Shown here: one piece after another, positions 25,939-49,181 of the stretch
Position numbering within the stretch: position 1 is the first letter of the stretch
Layout of the letters: each line of letters starts with the position of its first letter
Virus record (IMG/VR): IMGVR_UViG_3300031134_000639
Reading direction: 5' to 3' (one strand)
Length of the DNA: 64,000 bases
From: a virus
Lineage: Duplodnaviria > Heunggongvirae > Uroviricota > Caudoviricetes
Made by a program: the position numbers and the translations under genes
Notes under the pieces: model-generated
Told to the model about the DNA's origin: nothing
The model's database searches: none
Seen by the model: only the letters and a program-made list of their open reading frames with translations

Positions 25939-27411
25939 ATGTGCCAACCTCAATCAGAAGGCGGACGCCGTTGCAACGGTCACACACCATACGGTGTTGC
26001 TCGTCGTAATTTGCAAGCCCAAAAGCAATACCATGAGCACCGACTCACTGACAACCAGTTAACCGAGAAGCAGCGAGCTAAAAGTGAGAAAGGCTTAGAA
26101 GAAGCCGTTAACGGTCTCAACGAACTCTCTGAAGAGAAGAAAGCTCTAGGAACAGTCAAGCCGTACGTCATGAACTTGACTCCGAACACAGAGAAAGTAC
26201 TCAACCAGCTGGAAGCAGATGGTTTCACTCCCTACATTGTGGGAGGCTCAGTGCGTGACGTTATCATGGGCTTAGACTCAAAAGATGTTGACATTGAAGT
26301 GTACGGCGGTCAGCCTGAATCCATTGCGAAGTCTCTGAGAAAAATTGGTCACGTTGACGAGGTAGGAAAATCTTTTGGTGTGTTGAAGATTGCCATAGAC
26401 GGTGAAGACTTTGACGTTTCCCTTCCGCGAACTGATTCAAAGATTGGTGACGGGCACAAAGGGTTCTCAGTTGAGGTTAACCCTGACTTGAGTTTAGATG
26501 AAGCCACAGCTCGAAGAGATTACACAATCAACGCTTTGATGTACACTCATAGGCTAGGTTTCATCGTGGATAAGCACGGCGGACTTAAAGACCTTGAGAA
26601 TGGTCAGCTGCGTCACGTCTCGGAAGCTTTTGACGAAGACCCTCTGCGTGTTCTCCGTGGTGTTCAGATGGCATCCCGTTTTGATATGGAAATGCACCCT
26701 GACACGGTTGCTCGTGCACAGAAGCTTAAGTCATCCTTCAACGACTTAGCTACAGAGCGTGTAGCTATTGAGTTTGATAAGCTACATCTCAAAGGCAAGA
26801 ATGCCAGACGTGCATTCAAAGTTCTTCAGGCTACTGGTTGGGATTCTAACTTCCCTGGGTTAGCTGAGATTAATGATGAGAAGCTTCACACTGACTTGTC
26901 CAATGCTCACCATGTTGCTGACCGTGAGAGTCTAGACAACCAGGACAAGACTGTTCTAATCACGTCTATGATTACCTCTAAGATGAATCGCAAGGATCGT
27001 GAGAAGTTCCTAAAGTCAACTGTTATTGGTGAAAAAACACAGGGCATCATTCGTATCCTCAGTGAAACTAACTTACCAGAGAAGCAGGACTCTGCAAGCA
27101 TGCGTTTCTGGGCAGATGACCTAGGTAAAGTAAGTATCCGTAACTACAGTCACATGCTTGAAGCCCAAGGCCGAAAAGATGAAGCAAAAAGCTTGCTAGC
27201 TAAAGCTGAGGCAGTTGGTATTGCTGACCGTGCAGAAGCAGGAATGATTCAAGGTAGAGATGTTATAGCTCGCCATCCTGAAGTTAAAACAGGTCCTTGG
27301 TTAGGGAAAATGCTGAAAGCTGCGTTGCATGATCAGTACAATGAGAAGTTCAGAACACAGAAGCAGGCTGACCAGTGGTTAGCAGATAACATGCCTAAGT
27401 TCTACAACTGA
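25939..27411 (+). CDS. cca: CCA-adding enzyme / tRNA nucleotidyltransferase with ~75-aa N-terminal Cys-knuckle extension
   Basis: ORF track. IVGGSVRDVIMG, DVDIEVYG and RRDYTINAL are pol-beta tRNA nucleotidyltransferase head motifs. The N-terminus MCQPQSEGGRRCNGH..VARRNLQAQKQY matches the ART leader module. Confidence 0.85.
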   Translation: MCQPQSEGGRRCNGHTPYGVARRNLQAQKQYHEHRLTDNQLTEKQRAKSEKGLEEAVNGLNELSEEKKALGTVKPYVMNLTPNTEKVLNQLEADGFTPYIVGGSVRDVIMGLDSKDVDIEVYGGQPESIAKSLRKIGHVDEVGKSFGVLKIAIDGEDFDVSLPRTDSKIGDGHKGFSVEVNPDLSLDEATARRDYTINALMYTHRLGFIVDKHGGLKDLENGQLRHVSEAFDEDPLRVLRGVQMASRFDMEMHPDTVARAQKLKSSFNDLATERVAIEFDKLHLKGKNARRAFKVLQATGWDSNFPGLAEINDEKLHTDLSNAHHVADRESLDNQDKTVLITSMITSKMNRKDREKFLKSTVIGEKTQGIIRILSETNLPEKQDSASMRFWADDLGKVSIRNYSHMLEAQGRKDEAKSLLAKAEAVGIADRAEAGMIQGRDVIARHPEVKTGPWLGKMLKAALHDQYNEKFRTQKQADQWLADNMPKFYN

Positions 27412-27415
27412 CTAA

Positions 27416-27459
27416 CGACTGAGCGCCCCACAGACAAGATTCTGTGGGGCGCTCAGTCG
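27416..27459. terminator. Terminator hairpin (19-bp stem)
   Basis: CGACTGAGCGCCCCACAGA / TCTGTGGGGCGCTCAGTCG after cca. Confidence 0.75.
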
Positions 27460-27473
27460 TTGTTGAGGGGCAT

Positions 27474-27626
27474 CTACTGGCCGATACCAGCAGAGACATT
27501 AAAGCTAGGTCCAGACACCTGAATGTCGCTCTGAACAGTGTGATCTACAGGAGCGATTGAGAGTGTGGATGTAGCGATGAGTGTTGCAACACTGGCTTTA
27601 GTGAAGAAAGCAGCAATGATTTCCAT
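27474..27626 (-). CDS. Possible small secreted peptide
   Basis: ORF 27474..27689 trimmed to MEIIAAFF. Hydrophobic N-terminus, weak RBS. Confidence 0.3.
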   Translation of the reverse strand: MEIIAAFFTKASVATLIATSTLSIAPVDHTVQSDIQVSGPSFNVSAGIGQ

Positions 27627-46721: not shown

Positions 46722-46895
46722 AATATTTTCCTCCAAAAATGTTGACGTACTCTCCTTATATCTGCAAAACACCCAACTGTGGTACAAAAGTTTACTGATA
46801 TAGCTGGGAAACAGTCCCCTCAGACTGGCGCTATAAGCCTAGAAAAACCTGGTCAAACCGATATACATGGTACAATAAACAGACACAAATAACCT

Positions 46896-48311
46896 GTGTA
46901 CAAGAACTTACATGAAGGACAAAAGTTGGCTAAGAGAGCGTTTCGTTGCAGTAACTGTAATAACATCACCACAAAGTGGATGGGTATCTGCGATGAGTGT
47001 GGAGCATCCGGAACAATCGATGAGGACGCATCAGCACTAGTTACACTCAACGCTCCCAAGCCTGGTGTGGCATCAGCTGCAACCCCAGGAATTCGCGCCG
47101 CACGGGCAGCTAGCGGTAAAGCTCCTCAGCGCGTCGGAGATGTGAAAGCAGACTCCTTCAAACGTTTCAGCACAGGGTTGAAAGAGTTTGACCGTGTGCT
47201 CGGTGGAGGTCTAGTACCAGGAGGTGTTCTGCTTCTAGCAGGTGTGCCAGGTGTTGGTAAGTCAAGTATCCTTCTGTCAACAGCGAAAGCTTTAGCTGAC
47301 CAAGGCAAAAAAGTACTTATCGTCTCTGGTGAGGAAACCGAAGCTCAGATTGCTTCTCGTGCCCACAGAACAAATGCTTTATCTGAAAACCTGTATCTTC
47401 TCTCCGAGTCAAGCCTGCCAAACGCAGTTGCCCACATTTACGACATGCAACCTGATATTGTTATTGTTGACTCCATCCAGACTATGGTTTCAGAAAACAG
47501 TGAAGGACGCCATGGTAGCCCAACGCAGATGAACGAAGTGGCAAGCGAACTAACTAACCTTGCTAAGAGCATGAGCATCCCAATGCTCCTCATCGGACAC
47601 GTTACCAAAGACGGTGCCATCGCTGGTCCGAGGACAGTTGAGCACCTTGTGGACGTTGTACTCTACTTTGAGGGCACAAGCGACTCTCCTCTACGTCTTC
47701 TTCGTGGAGTTAAAAACCGTTACGGTGCGGTAGATGAAATTGGGTGTTTTGAGCACACAGAAGATGGGCTTATTGAAGTCTCTGACCCCTCAGGCTTCTT
47801 CCTCAACGAACACGATGACAACGTAGCTGGTTACGCTACTTCAATCCTTGTTGAAGGTAACCGTGCGCTCCCCATTGAAATTCAGGCTTTGGTAACAACA
47901 ACTAACCTTCCGAACCCAAGAAAAATCAGCAACGGTCTAGATCATGGGCGTGTGATGATGGTGCAGGCTATTCTTGAGAAGCACGGGCACCTACGCCTAC
48001 AGGATAAAGATGTTTATGTGTCAACCTCAGGTGGTTTGCTCACTAAGGACTCCTCCATTGACCTTGCTATTGCAGCTGCCATCATCTCCTCACACGACAG
48101 CATCGCAACTCCCGACCATTCAGTATTCCTAGGTGAGACCTCTCTTACAGGTGAGATTCGCCAGCCGAGGTCCTACAACAAGCGAGTAAACGAAGCTAAG
48201 CGACTAGGGTTCAACAATATTTTTGCTCCTTCCAAAGAAGATGCTGACAGCGTAAAAAACATTGTGGCTCTGGTCAAAGCTTTGCGTCCAAGTGTTCGTG
48301 ACCGCCGCTGA
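46896..48311 (+). CDS. radA: RadA/Sms-like recombination/repair ATPase
   Basis: ORF track (GTG start). Zn ribbon CSNCNNITTKWMGICDECG, Walker A GVPGVGKSS, VKNRYG (KNRFG-type motif), Lon-like C-terminal domain. Confidence 0.85.
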   Translation: MYKNLHEGQKLAKRAFRCSNCNNITTKWMGICDECGASGTIDEDASALVTLNAPKPGVASAATPGIRAARAASGKAPQRVGDVKADSFKRFSTGLKEFDRVLGGGLVPGGVLLLAGVPGVGKSSILLSTAKALADQGKKVLIVSGEETEAQIASRAHRTNALSENLYLLSESSLPNAVAHIYDMQPDIVIVDSIQTMVSENSEGRHGSPTQMNEVASELTNLAKSMSIPMLLIGHVTKDGAIAGPRTVEHLVDVVLYFEGTSDSPLRLLRGVKNRYGAVDEIGCFEHTEDGLIEVSDPSGFFLNEHDDNVAGYATSILVEGNRALPIEIQALVTTTNLPNPRKISNGLDHGRVMMVQAILEKHGHLRLQDKDVYVSTSGGLLTKDSSIDLAIAAAIISSHDSIATPDHSVFLGETSLTGEIRQPRSYNKRVNEAKRLGFNNIFAPSKEDADSVKNIVALVKALRPSVRDRR

Positions 48312-48318
48312 TAGACAT
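48308..48318 (+). promoter_or_regulatory. CTGATAGACAT motif variant; TAGACA-N6-ATG (ART-12)
   Basis: Overlaps the radA stop codon. Leaderless spacing. Confidence 0.45.
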
Positions 48319-48323
48319 ATTCT

Positions 48324-49181
48324 ATGTGTAGAACCGGTGGTAGACGTTGTCCAGCTTACAGTGACCCTCAGGCTATAGCCGACCGTAATGCAAGACGCAG
48401 AAAAGCTTATGCTGCTAAGAAAAGTGTTGTTCAGCCTCCACTGGAGATGGCCTTTCCTAGCCTAAGTGAAGTACGTAAAGTTGTTGGTTCTGAAGACCGC
48501 GAGTTGCGTGGTAAGAAGCTTGAAGAAGAACTTACTAGCTCTGAAGTAGAAGCAGTCGGGTACTACACAGAATCAGGTTACATAACTGTGCGAAATGAGT
48601 TAGTGGACTGGGAGTTAATCCAGGATTTGCAAGATAATGAAGACGTAGAAGAGCCTGATGAGGACATAAACGTTATCATAGACCATCTAGATAATGTGAT
48701 AGCTAAAGCCATCCCACCCCAAAATCCTGTGCCATTATATCGTGGAATTAATGTACCTATCTCAGTGCATTTAGACGAAGTTGATAATTGGGTTGATGCG
48801 AAATTCCCTATTGGTGGAATAATTCAGCAGGATAACTTCATGTCAACTTCATCAGCGCCGCAAACTGCGGTAGGCTTCAGTCAGCCAATAGATTCTATGT
48901 TTGGCAACTACGAAGATGAAAACGAAATGCGAGACATAATGTCTCAAGAACGCAGCATTGTTATGGAAATTTTAAGTAAAAAAGGTGCTGTTATCCTACC
49001 TTCTTTAGCTGGTGGAAGTTACGATGAGCAGGAAACCTTGCTGCCAAGAAATGCACGACTCAAAATTGTTGGTGTGCACAAGAAACAATCTTATTCATAT
49101 ATGACAAGATTCAGGCCCATCGACCCAGAAATAGCCATGGTTGTAAACCGTACTGTAATACAGGTAGTTGACGCAGACTAG
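48324..49181 (+). CDS. ADP-ribosyltransferase paralog ART-12 (short-knuckle subtype)
   Basis: ORF track. MCRTGGRRCPAYSDP; LYRGINV; NFMSTSSAP; DEQETLLPR. ATG lies 6 nt after TGaTAGACA, where the TGA is the radA stop. Confidence 0.8.
   Translation: MCRTGGRRCPAYSDPQAIADRNARRRKAYAAKKSVVQPPLEMAFPSLSEVRKVVGSEDRELRGKKLEEELTSSEVEAVGYYTESGYITVRNELVDWELIQDLQDNEDVEEPDEDINVIIDHLDNVIAKAIPPQNPVPLYRGINVPISVHLDEVDNWVDAKFPIGGIIQQDNFMSTSSAPQTAVGFSQPIDSMFGNYEDENEMRDIMSQERSIVMEILSKKGAVILPSLAGGSYDEQETLLPRNARLKIVGVHKKQSYSYMTRFRPIDPEIAMVVNRTVIQVVDAD

Follow-up and report, generated by a model that had tools for sequence, protein, structure and literature searches.

The window, the whole 64-kb stretch of DNA that was analysed, encodes a set of proteins that open with the same short N-terminal module of approximately 33–36 residues, in which an M-C...C knuckle is followed by a basic, arginine-rich helix. 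The pattern C-x(3-10)-[GP]-x-R-C-x2-[HY] was applied as a regular expression to all six frames of the window. It matched 14 N-termini, all on the + strand and all directly after the initiator Met, and nothing else in the six frames. The 14 proteins are 12 ADP-ribosylating enzymes (ARTs), a CCA-adding tRNA nucleotidyltransferase and a coiled-coil protein, and they open with MC(R/Q)x(1-6)G(G/P)RRCxx(H/Y), of which the coiled-coil protein has the knuckle only. Most copies have a stop codon 1–6 codons upstream and a purine-rich, SD-like sequence before the ATG, so the starts of these genes are unambiguous; the ORF listed from GTG 38790 has its true start at ATG 38808. The module copies and associated genes are as follows.

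18778–19686, − strand: 13th ART of the window, without the module; C-x6-C-x2-H N-terminus (Pfam ADPrib_exo_Tox, E 9.7e-11)
22204–23043, + strand: protein with a loose C-x7-C-x2-H N-terminus, not of the module family (zero profile score)
25939–26046, + strand: module (MCQPQSEGGRRCNGHTPYGVARRNLQAQKQYHEHR) of the CCA-adding tRNA nucleotidyltransferase, gene 25939–27411 (profile, 24.5 bits)
34009–34050, + strand: knuckle-only copy (MCRNRPGPRCTDHS) of the 247-aa coiled-coil protein, gene 34009–34752 (regex scan)
34766–35902, + strand: ADP-ribosylglycohydrolase (ARH) without the module, directly upstream of the ART array (Pfam ADP_ribosyl_GH, E 3.7e-43)
36004–36111, + strand: long-form module of ART 36004–36969 (75.5 bits; ADPrib_exo_Tox by Pfam)
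36969–37076, + strand: long-form module of ART 36969–37856 (profile match; Pfam ART domain)
37856–37963, + strand: long-form module of ART 37856–38731 (profile match; R / S-T / ExE triad)
38808–38915, + strand: long-form module of ART 38808–39698 (profile match; R / S-T / ExE triad)
39780–39887, + strand: long-form module, CPQY variant, of ART 39780–40634 (profile match; Pfam ART domain)
40634–40741, + strand: long-form module of ART 40634–41584 (76.3 bits; AF2 model)
41584–41691, + strand: long-form module of ART 41584–42450 (profile match; R / S-T / ExE triad)
42450–42557, + strand: long-form module with a short-form-type helix, of ART 42450–43283 (Pfam ART domain)
43286–43384, + strand: short-form module (MCRTGGRRCPSHSDP..ARNARRR) of ART 43286–44203 (Pfam ART domain)
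44203–44301, + strand: short-form module of ART 44203–45135 (profile match; R / S-T / ExE triad)
45191–45289, + strand: short-form module, CPSY, of ART 45191–46054 (profile match; Pfam ART domain)
48324–48422, + strand: short-form module, CPAY, of ART 48324–49181 (profile match; Pfam ART domain)

Eleven of the module-ARTs form one tandem array, from which ART 48324 is separated by radA (46896–48311). The Pfam scan took in nine of the 12 (36004, 36969, 39780, 42450, 43286, 45191 and 48324, with the cluster representatives P0008 and P0079 standing for ARTs 40634 and 44203), and ADPrib_exo_Tox was confirmed in all nine; the R / S-T / ExE triad is kept in all 12 in the alignment. The preliminary description had reported that every one of these ARTs opens with the module, and the six-frame scan, the translations and the profile agree on this point.

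The same description had extended the module to the CCA-adding enzyme, the coiled-coil protein and, loosely, to proteins 18778 and 22204. With a profile built without it, the N-terminus of the CCA-adding enzyme scored 24.5 bits (E 6e-7, among 637 six-frame ORFs of the window), which makes the enzyme a true member; its PolyA_pol head begins at residue 99 (Pfam), and its relatives in IMG/VR lack residues 1–75. The coiled-coil protein has the 14-residue knuckle MCRNRPGPRCTDHS in common with the module and nothing more. Its homologue MCRNRPGVRCSDHS, which adjoins module-ARTs on contig L213, keeps the knuckle, but the protein falls below significance with the module profile among the six-frame ORFs of the window. 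Membership of proteins 18778 and 22204 is not supported: neither gave any score with the profile, and their N-termini resemble a different N-terminal Cys motif, and 22204 has no Pfam or PHROG match.

The family-wide consensus reads M-C-R-x(1-8)-G-G-R-R-C-P-x-[H>Y,Q,S,E,C]-[ST]-[DN]-P. After it comes a basic helix that is conserved along one face, made up in the ART-type module of A22, N25, R28, R29, Y32 and K36. Conservation along the helix is periodic, the observed value being reached in 9 of 10,000 permutations, and the mean net charge is +6.7 over 36 residues. The helix takes the form NARRRxxY in ARTs, HPAxRAAxRA in the Streptomyces proteins and DPxRRxxAxxRQR in the island type, and the CCA-adding enzyme has lost the Arg pair. 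AF2 models the isolated module as a coil and a helix (pLDDT 82.5); in the model of full-length ART 40634 (pLDDT 90.3), whose fold resembles C3/C2/VIP2, the coil spans residues 1–17 and the helix residues 18–38.

CPx[H/C] is a classical knuckle signature. The module lacks a classical four-ligand Zn site, and a canonical Zn site is not demonstrated, because only Cys2 and Cys12 are invariant in the knuckle and the third ligand position is His in just 70% of sequences, being otherwise Y, Q, S, E or C. The retroviral CCHC knuckle and the arginine-rich motifs of lambda N and HIV Rev resemble the module in the CPx[H/C] signature, in a Gly-Gly pair ahead of the second Cys and in an Arg-rich helix, one face of which bears an invariant Asn. 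The module differs from them in its two invariant ligands and its obligatory N-terminal position, and its RNA binding is putative; no sequence or structural match was found. A same-phylum precedent for a metal site that must be N-terminal is the 'Ni-hook' of Streptomyces NiSOD, His-Cys-x3-Cys, in which the metal is bound by the free N-terminal amine and two nearby Cys. This is an analogy only; motif, spacing and function differ from those of the module.

The invariant, Arg-flanked Cys pair, in which the thiol pKa may be lowered, might also serve as a switch that responds to redox state or metal, or the N-terminus might signal protein stability; either would keep potentially toxic enzymes inactive or short-lived until they are needed. 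The attachment of the module to such enzymes would suit this explanation, which we nevertheless regard as improbable. Judged by secondary structure and pLDDT, the AF2 model shows no contact between the module and the ART active site; a CCA-adding enzyme or coiled-coil protein has no clear need for such a switch; and, to our knowledge, Cys is not among the known bacterial N-degrons.

A profile of the module was searched exhaustively against 1.84 billion representative proteins; 173 clusters matched at E<=1e-3, of which 67 reached E<=1e-10. The module was always N-terminal: it begins at residue 1 in 143 of 148 matches, and the remaining five have an in-frame Met or Val right before the Cys. Approximately 85% of the clusters are R-S-ExE ARTs. 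By Pfam, 147 matches included 123 with ADPrib_exo_Tox, one with ART-PolyVal and one with Zeta_toxin/AAA_33; further cargo comprises an unknown family of eight clusters and several singletons. HExxH proteins of 525–754 aa, encoded on IMG/VR contigs of 200–394 kb, bear a CPC/CPSC variant of the module. In some actinobacterial proteins, those of the island and plasmid types, the module is combined with a C-terminal domain that Streptomyces phages have at the C-termini of their MuF proteins; one example is gp4, the MuF protein of Streptomyces phage SV1 (E 3e-14). The module was thus portable, as first described, the same head standing on several unrelated catalytic domains. The Pfam scan detected no domain within it, MuF included, and no described family matched; it is a protein module not described before.

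Between the eight long-form paralogs, the module is 70% identical and the remaining protein 33%. Over 924 codon pairs of these copies, synonymous differences numbered 409 vs 169 non-synonymous, in line with the earlier statement that codons differ while the peptide is conserved, and selection at the protein level is supported by this comparison. The presence of 11 copies within one tandem array could be taken to mean that tandem duplication or gene conversion left these proteins with a common N-terminus that has no function of its own. The peptide is conserved despite saturated synonymous sites, the same head is joined to unrelated catalytic domains and recurs in distant high-GC Actinobacteria, and the relatives of the CCA-adding enzyme lack it, all of which makes this extremely improbable; the profile search, the range of Pfam cargo, the codon comparison and the membership of the CCA-adding enzyme all contradict it.

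Cultured carriers of the module are Actinobacteria without exception, and it is also found on huge uncultured replicons. Giant linear Streptomyces plasmids have tandem module-ARTs beside ligA, and further copies lie on conjugative or large plasmids of three other genera (a conjugative one in Paenarthrobacter, one in Dietzia, and plasmids of Rhodococcus) and on integrase-bearing islands of cultured Actinobacteria. The matches demonstrate a module fused to many unrelated catalytic domains of predicted effector type, on Actinobacteria-linked DNA that is mobile or extrachromosomal. In the window (56776–57492) and on the Dietzia and Paenarthrobacter plasmids, FtsK/SpoIIIE-like genes are close to module genes. 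Paralog families of the same replicons bear other short N-terminal tags. In ~84 kb around the window no gene for a capsid, portal or terminase came to light, and T7SS genes were not seen either. A tblastn search with the module consensus gave no real match in 50,697 GenBank phage records, which include actinophages matching the MuF-associated domain, and a stringent DNA pattern for the ART-type module gave zero matches in IMG/VR.

This distribution bears on a reading that we rate somewhat below the one preferred below: that the module is a tag read by the element's own machinery, so that tagged effectors travel out of the producing cell with the DNA and act first in the cell that it has just entered, while the untagged glycohydrolase protects the producer. 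Candidates for this machinery are procapsid assembly, should the huge replicons be phages; in plasmids, an FtsK/SpoIIIE-type coupling ATPase or a T4SS; or else a secretion system. The exclusively N-terminal position, the module-less ARH directly upstream of the 12 ARTs, the nearby FtsK/SpoIIIE-like genes, the other tags on paralog families, and the stronger conservation of module than of cargo all point this way. So does the cargo itself: Iyer et al. 2017 described ART, ART-PolyVal, zeta-toxin kinase, HExxH and the MuF C-terminal domain in MuF-fused and polyvalent proteins (PMC5512222), and the module proteins carry the same types, including the domain in common with gp4 of SV1. In both systems a constant carrier part is joined to interchangeable effector domains and encoded by the invading DNA (PMC5512222, PMC3482391). 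They differ in that the module is N-terminal and has 35 residues vs ~110–300, is joined to one cargo domain vs 2–15, and occurs on plasmids and islands and in none of the phages searched. Polymorphic toxins with N-terminal trafficking domains such as LXG, WXG100 and PT-TG (PMC3482391) likewise combine a conserved N-terminus with a hypervariable C-terminal toxin and a neutralising enzyme nearby (here ARH), but show no homology; the module proteins have one generic ARH vs cognate immunity genes, are 270–550 aa long and lack repeats or a releasing peptidase.

The preliminary description had suggested a virion-packaging tag like that of T4 Alt. The capsid-targeting sequence of T4 Alt and internal proteins is also a short N-terminal peptide on an ART, an early host-takeover enzyme. 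The module has no sequence relation to it, no visible prohead-protease cleavage motif and no phage context, and is set apart by its invariant Cys pair and its long, basic helix. The capsid version is weakened, because the module is absent from the phage records and, in its ART-type form, from IMG/VR by the stringent pattern, and present where no capsid exists; the broader version, delivery with DNA, survives because the cargo repertoire is that of MuF and polyvalent proteins (PMC5512222). Against delivery in general stand the want of a conserved cleavage site behind the module, and the CCA-adding enzyme and coiled-coil proteins, which would be odd cargo. T4SS signals known so far are C-terminal, and the TraB systems of actinomycetes are known to transfer only dsDNA.

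The reading we prefer, tentatively and with somewhat less than even confidence, is that the module is a metal-stabilised basic tether that needs a free N-terminus and concentrates effectors on a polyanion, probably nucleic acid. Met1 would be removed, as expected because residue 2 is Cys, exposing an N-terminal Cys whose free amino-thiol, together with the second Cys, would hold a metal ion; His, or Cys in CPxC variants, would add a ligand where present. The Arg-lined loop would thereby fold against the start of the helix. That the module never occurs internally would follow from this need for a free N-terminus. The resulting mini-domain, with a net charge of ~+7, would tether its enzyme to a polyanionic partner in the actinobacterial cytoplasm, most plausibly element DNA, nucleoid DNA or a structured RNA such as tRNA. 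A diversifying set of effectors (arginine-type ARTs, kinases, HExxH enzymes and a tRNA CCA-adding enzyme) could thus have one address in common. The earlier suggestion of a metal knuckle with an Arg-rich, nucleic-acid-binding helix fits the anatomy: the charge, the one-faced helix and the AF2 coil and helix are compatible with polyanion binding, and presence on plasmids and an integrase island indicates that the module works without capsids. Against a tether, sorting signals classically have just this strict N-terminal placement, the cargo is of the types that are commonly delivered with DNA, and the module-less glycohydrolase just upstream resembles an immunity gene for exported toxins.

A parallel to the tether is offered by ArdC, with an N-terminal ssDNA-binding domain and a C-terminal HExxH metallopeptidase (PMC6222260, PMC5512222), a layout like that of the module-HExxH proteins of the 200–394 kb contigs. 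Both are plasmid 'establishment' proteins; neither half is detectably homologous, and nucleic-acid binding by the module is inferred.

The partner might instead be a protein, an alternative we consider unlikely. The two Cys, too few for an intramolecular tetrahedral site, could contribute one half of a metal site between two molecules, in the manner of a zinc clasp or hook. Alternatively, the conserved face, whose many Ala, Asn and Tyr residues recall helix–helix packing, could pack on a common partner such as host RNA polymerase, the ribosome, a chaperone, or an element-encoded scaffold or inhibitor; in a variant, the module drives oligomerisation of the paralogs. One near-identical head common to many paralogs would agree with docking of this kind, but no co-occurring partner gene was identified, and the ART, Streptomyces, island and HExxH subfamilies have strongly divergent helix sequences. 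This divergence fits non-specific electrostatics and, equally, lineage-specific protein partners.

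The module, a head of about 33–36 residues in which a Met-Cys...Cys knuckle is followed by an arginine-rich helix, opens 12 ADP-ribosyltransferases (ARTs) of 277–321 amino acids in the window. Translation distinguished a long form, MCR(T/S/P)KE(L)GGRRCP(Q/S)(H/Y)(T/S)(D/N)P...YNARRRELYA, and a short form three residues shorter, MCRT(G/A)GRRCP(S/A)(H/Y)...RNARRR..Y. The module-bearing genes form a co-directional run on the + strand. The genes most relevant to the analysis are:

25939 (+), CCA-adding enzyme of 490 aa, module-bearing
34009 (+), coiled-coil protein of 247 aa, knuckle only
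34766-35902 (+), ADP-ribosylglycohydrolase (ARH), module-less
36004, 36969, 37856, 38808, 39780, 40634 (+), starts of the first six module-ARTs
41584, 42450, 43286, 44203, 45191, 48324 (+), starts of the last six module-ARTs

A six-frame scan of the whole 64 kb for the pattern C-x(3-10)-[GP]-x-R-C-x2-[HY] gave 14 matches, all on the + strand and directly behind an initiator ATG: the 12 ARTs and the proteins at 25939 and 34009. Most of these ATGs are preceded by a stop at 1–6 codons and by a purine-rich SD-like sequence, so that the ORF listed from GTG 38790 truly begins at ATG 38808. Codon variation between the copies had been taken in the preliminary description as a sign of conservation at the protein level, and the counts agree: among 924 pairwise codon comparisons of the eight long-form copies, 409 were synonymous differences and 169 non-synonymous. 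Mean identity between paralogs is 70% in the module and 33% in the rest of the proteins; purifying selection has therefore acted more strongly on the head than on the attached enzyme. The same values exclude a functionless duplication relic, the peptide having been kept over synonymous change.

In a search of the 637 six-frame ORFs of the window, a profile built without the CCA-adding enzyme recovered the N-terminus of that enzyme (24.5 bits, E 6e-7). Pfam places PolyA_pol and PolyA_pol_RNAbd from residue 99 of this protein, and because its relatives in IMG/VR align only from residue 75–100, its head is an add-on. The claim that one N-terminal module is shared by the ARTs and the CCA enzyme is thus borne out, and is extended by the clusters found outside the window. 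The coiled-coil protein, also described as a bearer, has the knuckle in its first 14 residues, but its profile score is not significant. A homologue on another contig (L213) keeps the same knuckle and adjoins module-ARTs. The 'looser knuckles' at 18778 and 22204 gave no score at all with the module profile and were rejected as members; 18778-19686 (-) is a 13th ART of the window.

An exhaustive profile search, an approach suggested in the preliminary description, was performed with a 36-position HMM against 1.84 billion representative proteins and returned 173 clusters at E<=1e-3 and 67 at E<=1e-10. It superseded a word-indexed protein search with a 45-aa module alignment, which gave 3 marginal matches and missed the window's own proteins. 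The module begins at residue 1 in 143 of 148 inspected matches; the remaining five have an in-frame Met or Val immediately before the Cys, and their starts are therefore likely mis-called. No internal, C-terminal or repeated module occurs among the 148. Invariant or near-invariant positions are M1, C2, R3, G8, G9, R10, R11, C12, P13 and P18 in the loop and N25, R28, R29 and Y32 in the helix. Across these matches C2 and C12 are the only invariant candidate metal ligands; position C12+3 is His in 103 (70%) and otherwise Y, Q, S, E, C or L, and there is no fourth conserved Cys/His ligand.

Most of the cargo consists of ARTs. Pfam assigned 123 of 147 family members to ADPrib_exo_Tox, one to ART-PolyVal and one to Zeta_toxin/AAA_33. 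When the heads were removed and the remainders clustered, 127 ARTs were obtained, together with one eight-cluster family with acidic tails and a fold without assignment, two coiled-coil/acidic proteins, and singletons. Proteins of 525–754 aa with a C-terminal HExxH motif, encoded on IMG/VR contigs of 209–394 kb, have a variant head in which CPC or CPSC follows the Arg pair. A loose DNA pattern gave mostly chance or out-of-frame matches in IMG/VR, and after in-frame filtering only this HExxH-type variant was left; the ART-type module pattern is absent from IMG/VR. On a 24-kb Logan contig from SRR25400089 (L162), a head-bearing zeta-toxin-like kinase and a head-bearing ART-PolyVal lie about 2 kb apart, with RNA ligase, HIT and MGS-like genes 4–7 kb downstream, a gene set that hints at an RNA-repair or NAD-centred function.

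In the window, seven ARTs scanned directly match Pfam ADPrib_exo_Tox (PF03496) above the gathering score (E 4e-7 to 4e-19), and two more match through their cluster representatives, so that nine are covered; those at 37856, 38808 and 41584 were not themselves scanned. Alignment places the catalytic [YF]R, S-T/V and ExE motifs in all 12, and S215, E257 and E259 are invariant across 77 ART sequences. An AF2 model of the 40634 protein (pLDDT 90.3) has a predicted ART fold of the C3, C2-I, VIP2 and Vis toxin type, with Plx2A, C2-I, Vis and C3bot as best Foldseek matches (E about 1e-9 to 1e-10). The window ARTs are R-S-E ADP-ribosyltransferases of the exoenzyme/C3-C2-VIP2 type, an assignment that applies to the cargo and not to the module. 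Tandem arrays of up to 12 Arg-type ARTs, predicted to be active and sharing one head, are unusual, and imply that the enzymes either have many targets at a single cellular site or are engaged in an arms race at the catalytic domain under a constant address. The module-less gene immediately upstream of the array matches Pfam ADP_ribosyl_GH, and its product could provide generic 'immunity' or timing control for Arg-ADP-ribosylation. PADLOC returned no match for this glycohydrolase or for ten representative module proteins, save a weak VakA match (E 0.005) for the cluster representative P0119. A full-length radA/sms gene (46896-48311, +; TIGR00416 457 bits, above cut-off) lies between the ARTs at 45191 and 48324.

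The module is a strictly N-terminal, strongly conserved and very basic Cys-x(5-11)-Cys-Pro-x-(His) loop followed by a helix, joined to interchangeable effector enzymes of actinobacterial mobile DNA. The AF2 model of the full-length 40634 protein has coil at residues 1–17 (pLDDT about 70) and helix at 18–38; modelled alone from 71 sequences, the module (pLDDT 82.5) has a short turn at 13–16 and a helix at 18–40. Conservation along the helix is periodic (moment 0.26, reached by 9 of 10,000 permutations), and the first 36 residues carry a mean net charge of +6.7. Models and conservation together give a short basic helix with a conserved face, as in arginine-rich-motif RNA-binding peptides, with RNA or DNA as the putative ligand. 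The anatomy is therefore compatible with the earlier reading of the module as a metal knuckle plus an arginine-rich RNA-binding motif, except that the four-ligand site of such a knuckle does not appear in it.

Since the four-ligand count falls short, the module is not a classical zinc knuckle or zinc ribbon, and a canonical four-ligand metal site is absent, two Cys alone being invariant and the His occurring in 70% of members. Removal of Met1 is expected because residue 2 is Cys, and would expose an N-terminal amino-thiol. The free amine could then act as a metal ligand and complete the site, which would explain why the module is never internal; the Ni-hook of Streptomyces NiSOD is a precedent for a free amine in this role. 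Two further readings of the head, as an intermolecular metal clasp or docking device and as a regulatory switch, appear unlikely and very unlikely, respectively. The basic surface of the module suggests that it may bind a polyanion.

That the module belongs to no known family was upheld: residues 1–60 of the module proteins have no Pfam, PHROG or NCBIfam match at E<=0.1, and neither a Phage_Mu_F nor an LPD domain was found in the same searches. A Tat signal peptide was rejected, as the twin Arg leads into CPxH[ST][DN]P and then a charged helix, and a hydrophobic stretch is lacking, and so was a bZIP-like basic region (DP...N..RR), whose spacing misfits N-x2-AA-x2-[CS]R. In working principle the module resembles the constant carrier parts of polymorphic, MuF-fused and polyvalent effectors, but it falls outside these groups; none of their defining domains is present. 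The design principle is a known one, and the constant head itself is of a new kind. A T4-type capsid-targeting sequence would be expected to occur in phage genomes, whereas the module consensus had no real match by tblastn in 50,697 GenBank phage records, which weakens the suggestion that the module is a virion-packaging tag.

Among 185,579 GTDB representatives (one genome per species), true in-frame matches were confined to high-GC Actinobacteria: Nonomuraea, Prescottella, Gordonia, Amycolatopsis, Dietzia, Lentzea, Arthrobacter and Pseudonocardiaceae. Eight matches in Oribacterium/Lachnospiraceae were rejected as a host clue, being out of frame inside a conserved gene. In the GTDB carrier proteins (270–345 aa) the head is followed by a coiled coil and then by a conserved C-terminal domain; Pfam and NCBIfam gave no match for any of them, and their annotation is 'hypothetical protein' throughout. 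The C-terminal domain, of about 70–100 aa (...Y.AE..(C/T).G.LLN..G...G.DP.SL(F/L)SG...) and previously undescribed, also forms the C-terminus of gp4, the MuF-like minor capsid protein of Streptomyces phage SV1, and of its relatives (46% identity over 67 residues, E 3e-14). It thus occurs both in head-bearing proteins of plasmids and islands and at the C-terminus of phage proteins, from Streptomyces and Microbacterium phages, that are MuF-like or termed 'capsid maturation protease'. Sequence comparison placed it within:

L136 2374-3393, gp4-shared domain
L174 2306-4303, gp4-shared domain (SV1 gp4, aa 566-632)

Several carriers lie on recognisable mobile elements:

Kibdelosporangium island (L175), with integrase, DUF2637 and HTH genes alongside
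227-kb Dietzia plasmid, module gene two genes from an FtsK/SpoIIIE gene
Plasmids of Rhodococcus, Glutamicibacter and Paenarthrobacter

The 49.6-kb Paenarthrobacter plasmid is conjugative, with FtsK/SpoIIIE, a large ATPase, an SLT transglycosylase and a 'conjugal transfer protein'; its module gene, 6 kb from the FtsK/T4SS cluster, is surrounded by ligase, methylase-helicase and Rmf/CrpP genes. The head-ART architecture also occurs in cultured strains, on Streptomyces plasmids. On the 559-kb linear plasmid of Streptomyces sp. NBC_00637, four head genes lie close together, three adjacent and the fourth two genes on, with heads of the type (M/V)CRxxxKGGRRC(A/T)SSHPAxRAAxRA; three of the four are annotated ADP-ribosyltransferase, and the genes adjoin ligA. 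Plasmids of Streptomyces sp. MMBL 11-1 and S. halstedii have the same module-ART arrangement. In two ADP-ribosyltransferase genes of these plasmids the RefSeq starts lie too far downstream, so that the annotation hides the module, which is encoded by the in-frame upstream sequence (VCRSIPEGGRRCASSHPAV..., MCRPVAKGGRRCTSSQPAM...):

L229 5329-6582 (NZ_CP117710.1), mis-started ART gene
L231 3278-4576 (NZ_CP109045.1), mis-started ART gene

Plasmid records with relatives of the window ART domain are giant Streptomyces plasmids only. On a 799-kb linear Streptomyces plasmid (L230, NZ_CP109179.1 366592-384003), a gene of 17.4 kb with the annotation ADP-ribosyltransferase would encode about 5,800 aa, the size of a polyvalent protein, and its ART domain ranks with the nearest relatives of the window ARTs on plasmids. 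ligA lies close to module-ARTs in the window (54715-56745) and on two giant linear Streptomyces plasmids (L227 8274-10307, L231 1-868), and this proximity may represent a conserved neighbourhood.

We tentatively favour a role for the module as a tether to nucleic acid or to a hub, because a tRNA enzyme is among its bearers, because plasmids and islands that lack capsids have it, and because head plus HExxH makes an ArdC-like layout. The main rival, which we rate as somewhat less likely, is that it serves as a trafficking tag. Its obligate N-terminal position would suit such a tag, as would a cargo repertoire like that of MuF and polyvalent proteins (PMC5512222), the domain common to carriers and MuF C-termini, and the untagged glycohydrolase upstream of the array, which resembles producer immunity; against the virion version stands the complete absence of the module from the phage genomes searched. 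A bolder form, to which we assign a low probability, would make the MCR head the first signal for protein translocation or docking to be recognised in actinobacterial mobile DNA, an amino-thiol metal hook that would be read by an FtsK/SpoIIIE-type machine or by procapsids of 0.5–0.9 Mb replicons. ADP-ribosyltransferases, kinases, peptidases and the tRNA-repair enzyme would then enter a new host together with the DNA as an arsenal, and the untagged glycohydrolase would remain behind as producer immunity. How these elements address their enzymes thereby becomes a testable question in cultured Streptomyces and Paenarthrobacter strains. If confirmed, the module would be an uncatalogued domain marking the effector arsenal of actinobacterial plasmids, integrated elements and 0.5–0.9 Mb uncultured replicons. 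Its 36-residue profile, with more than 170 clusters, offers a way to find new effector domains, the eight-cluster family and the domain common to carriers and MuF C-termini being examples.

The window corresponds to about 478–542 kb of a 624,949-bp ENA contig. Proteins identical to its own occur on contigs of 663 and up to 885 kb, more module genes on contigs of 727, 725 and 240 kb (GC 36–46%), and RadA relatives at 50–60% identity on metagenomic contigs of 355–908 kb. Its clade comprises metagenomic contigs of 0.5–0.9 Mb (625, 663, 727, 725 and 885 kb; GC 36–46%), and the lineage was not found in GenBank phages (DNA and tblastn), IMG/VR or the GTDB species representatives. Roughly 84 kb around the window contains paralog families without assigned function together with radA, ligA, thyX, NT5C, nrdHIE, flotillin, DUF2637, NlpC/P60 and an FtsK-like ATPase; it lacks tRNA genes, and none of its genes is recognisable as capsid, portal, terminase or relaxase. 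The 10-kb flanks on each side, searched for capsid and conjugation hallmarks, gave only NrdHIE, hypothetical paralogs and one more ART. Because DUF2637, the FtsK-like gene and the ligA-ART neighbourhood are shared, we lean towards the actinobacterial giant-plasmid world as the source of this replicon. Part of a small-genome epibiont such as Saccharibacteria was also considered, an origin brought to mind by contigs of 0.6–0.9 Mb, a GC of 45% and the link to Actinobacteria. The data speak neither for nor against it: the lineage is missing from the 185,579 GTDB species representatives, and radA lies within the ART array.

At 27799-32863 a flotillin and a secreted NlpC/P60 hydrolase are grouped with two membrane proteins, one of them a DUF2637 protein, and a short FtsK/SpoIIIE-like ATPase lies further on at 56776-57492; together they resemble the transfer and spread genes of actinomycete plasmids. 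Two interleaved families of ~200-aa paralogs with no database match occupy 310-13200, one on the - strand (P(T/S)xYGxxR...(E/D)DGG(L/I)TLPDG(K/R)TY; 881, 1539, 2776, 3381, 5954, 11092, 11779 and 12480) and one on the + strand (5282, 6738, 7348, 10412 and 13213). Three tandem paralogs of ~290 aa (57991-58890, 58921-59784 and 59807-60667, all +) have a common TEHYSVP(Y/F) N-terminal motif and no Pfam or PHROG match.

Other N-terminal heads were also observed. The adjacent paralogs at 51716-52636 (-) and 52753-53640 (-) have an identical 38-residue head, MPNPYHDSQGRFASRDELKGLVDQAYKDGDMSTYIRER, and a 684-aa protein on the 725-kb contig (L209 2296-4350, -) has GNPYHDADGKFCSRD near its N-terminus. 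These NPYHD-tag proteins had no Pfam or PHROG match and no tblastn match in phages, and their head may be a second N-terminal tag common to these replicons. On the 727-kb contig (L187), two genes at 8196-9305 (-) and 12629-13132 (-) flank two module proteins and encode another N-terminal Cys motif, HINxxGxVxxCxAxxRxCxFGG...H[FY]. The knuckles of 18778-19686 (-) and 22204-23043 (+) (DGSTCYTGPTCKKHGF, KCSKPAGEPCRLH) look closer to this type than to the MCR module.
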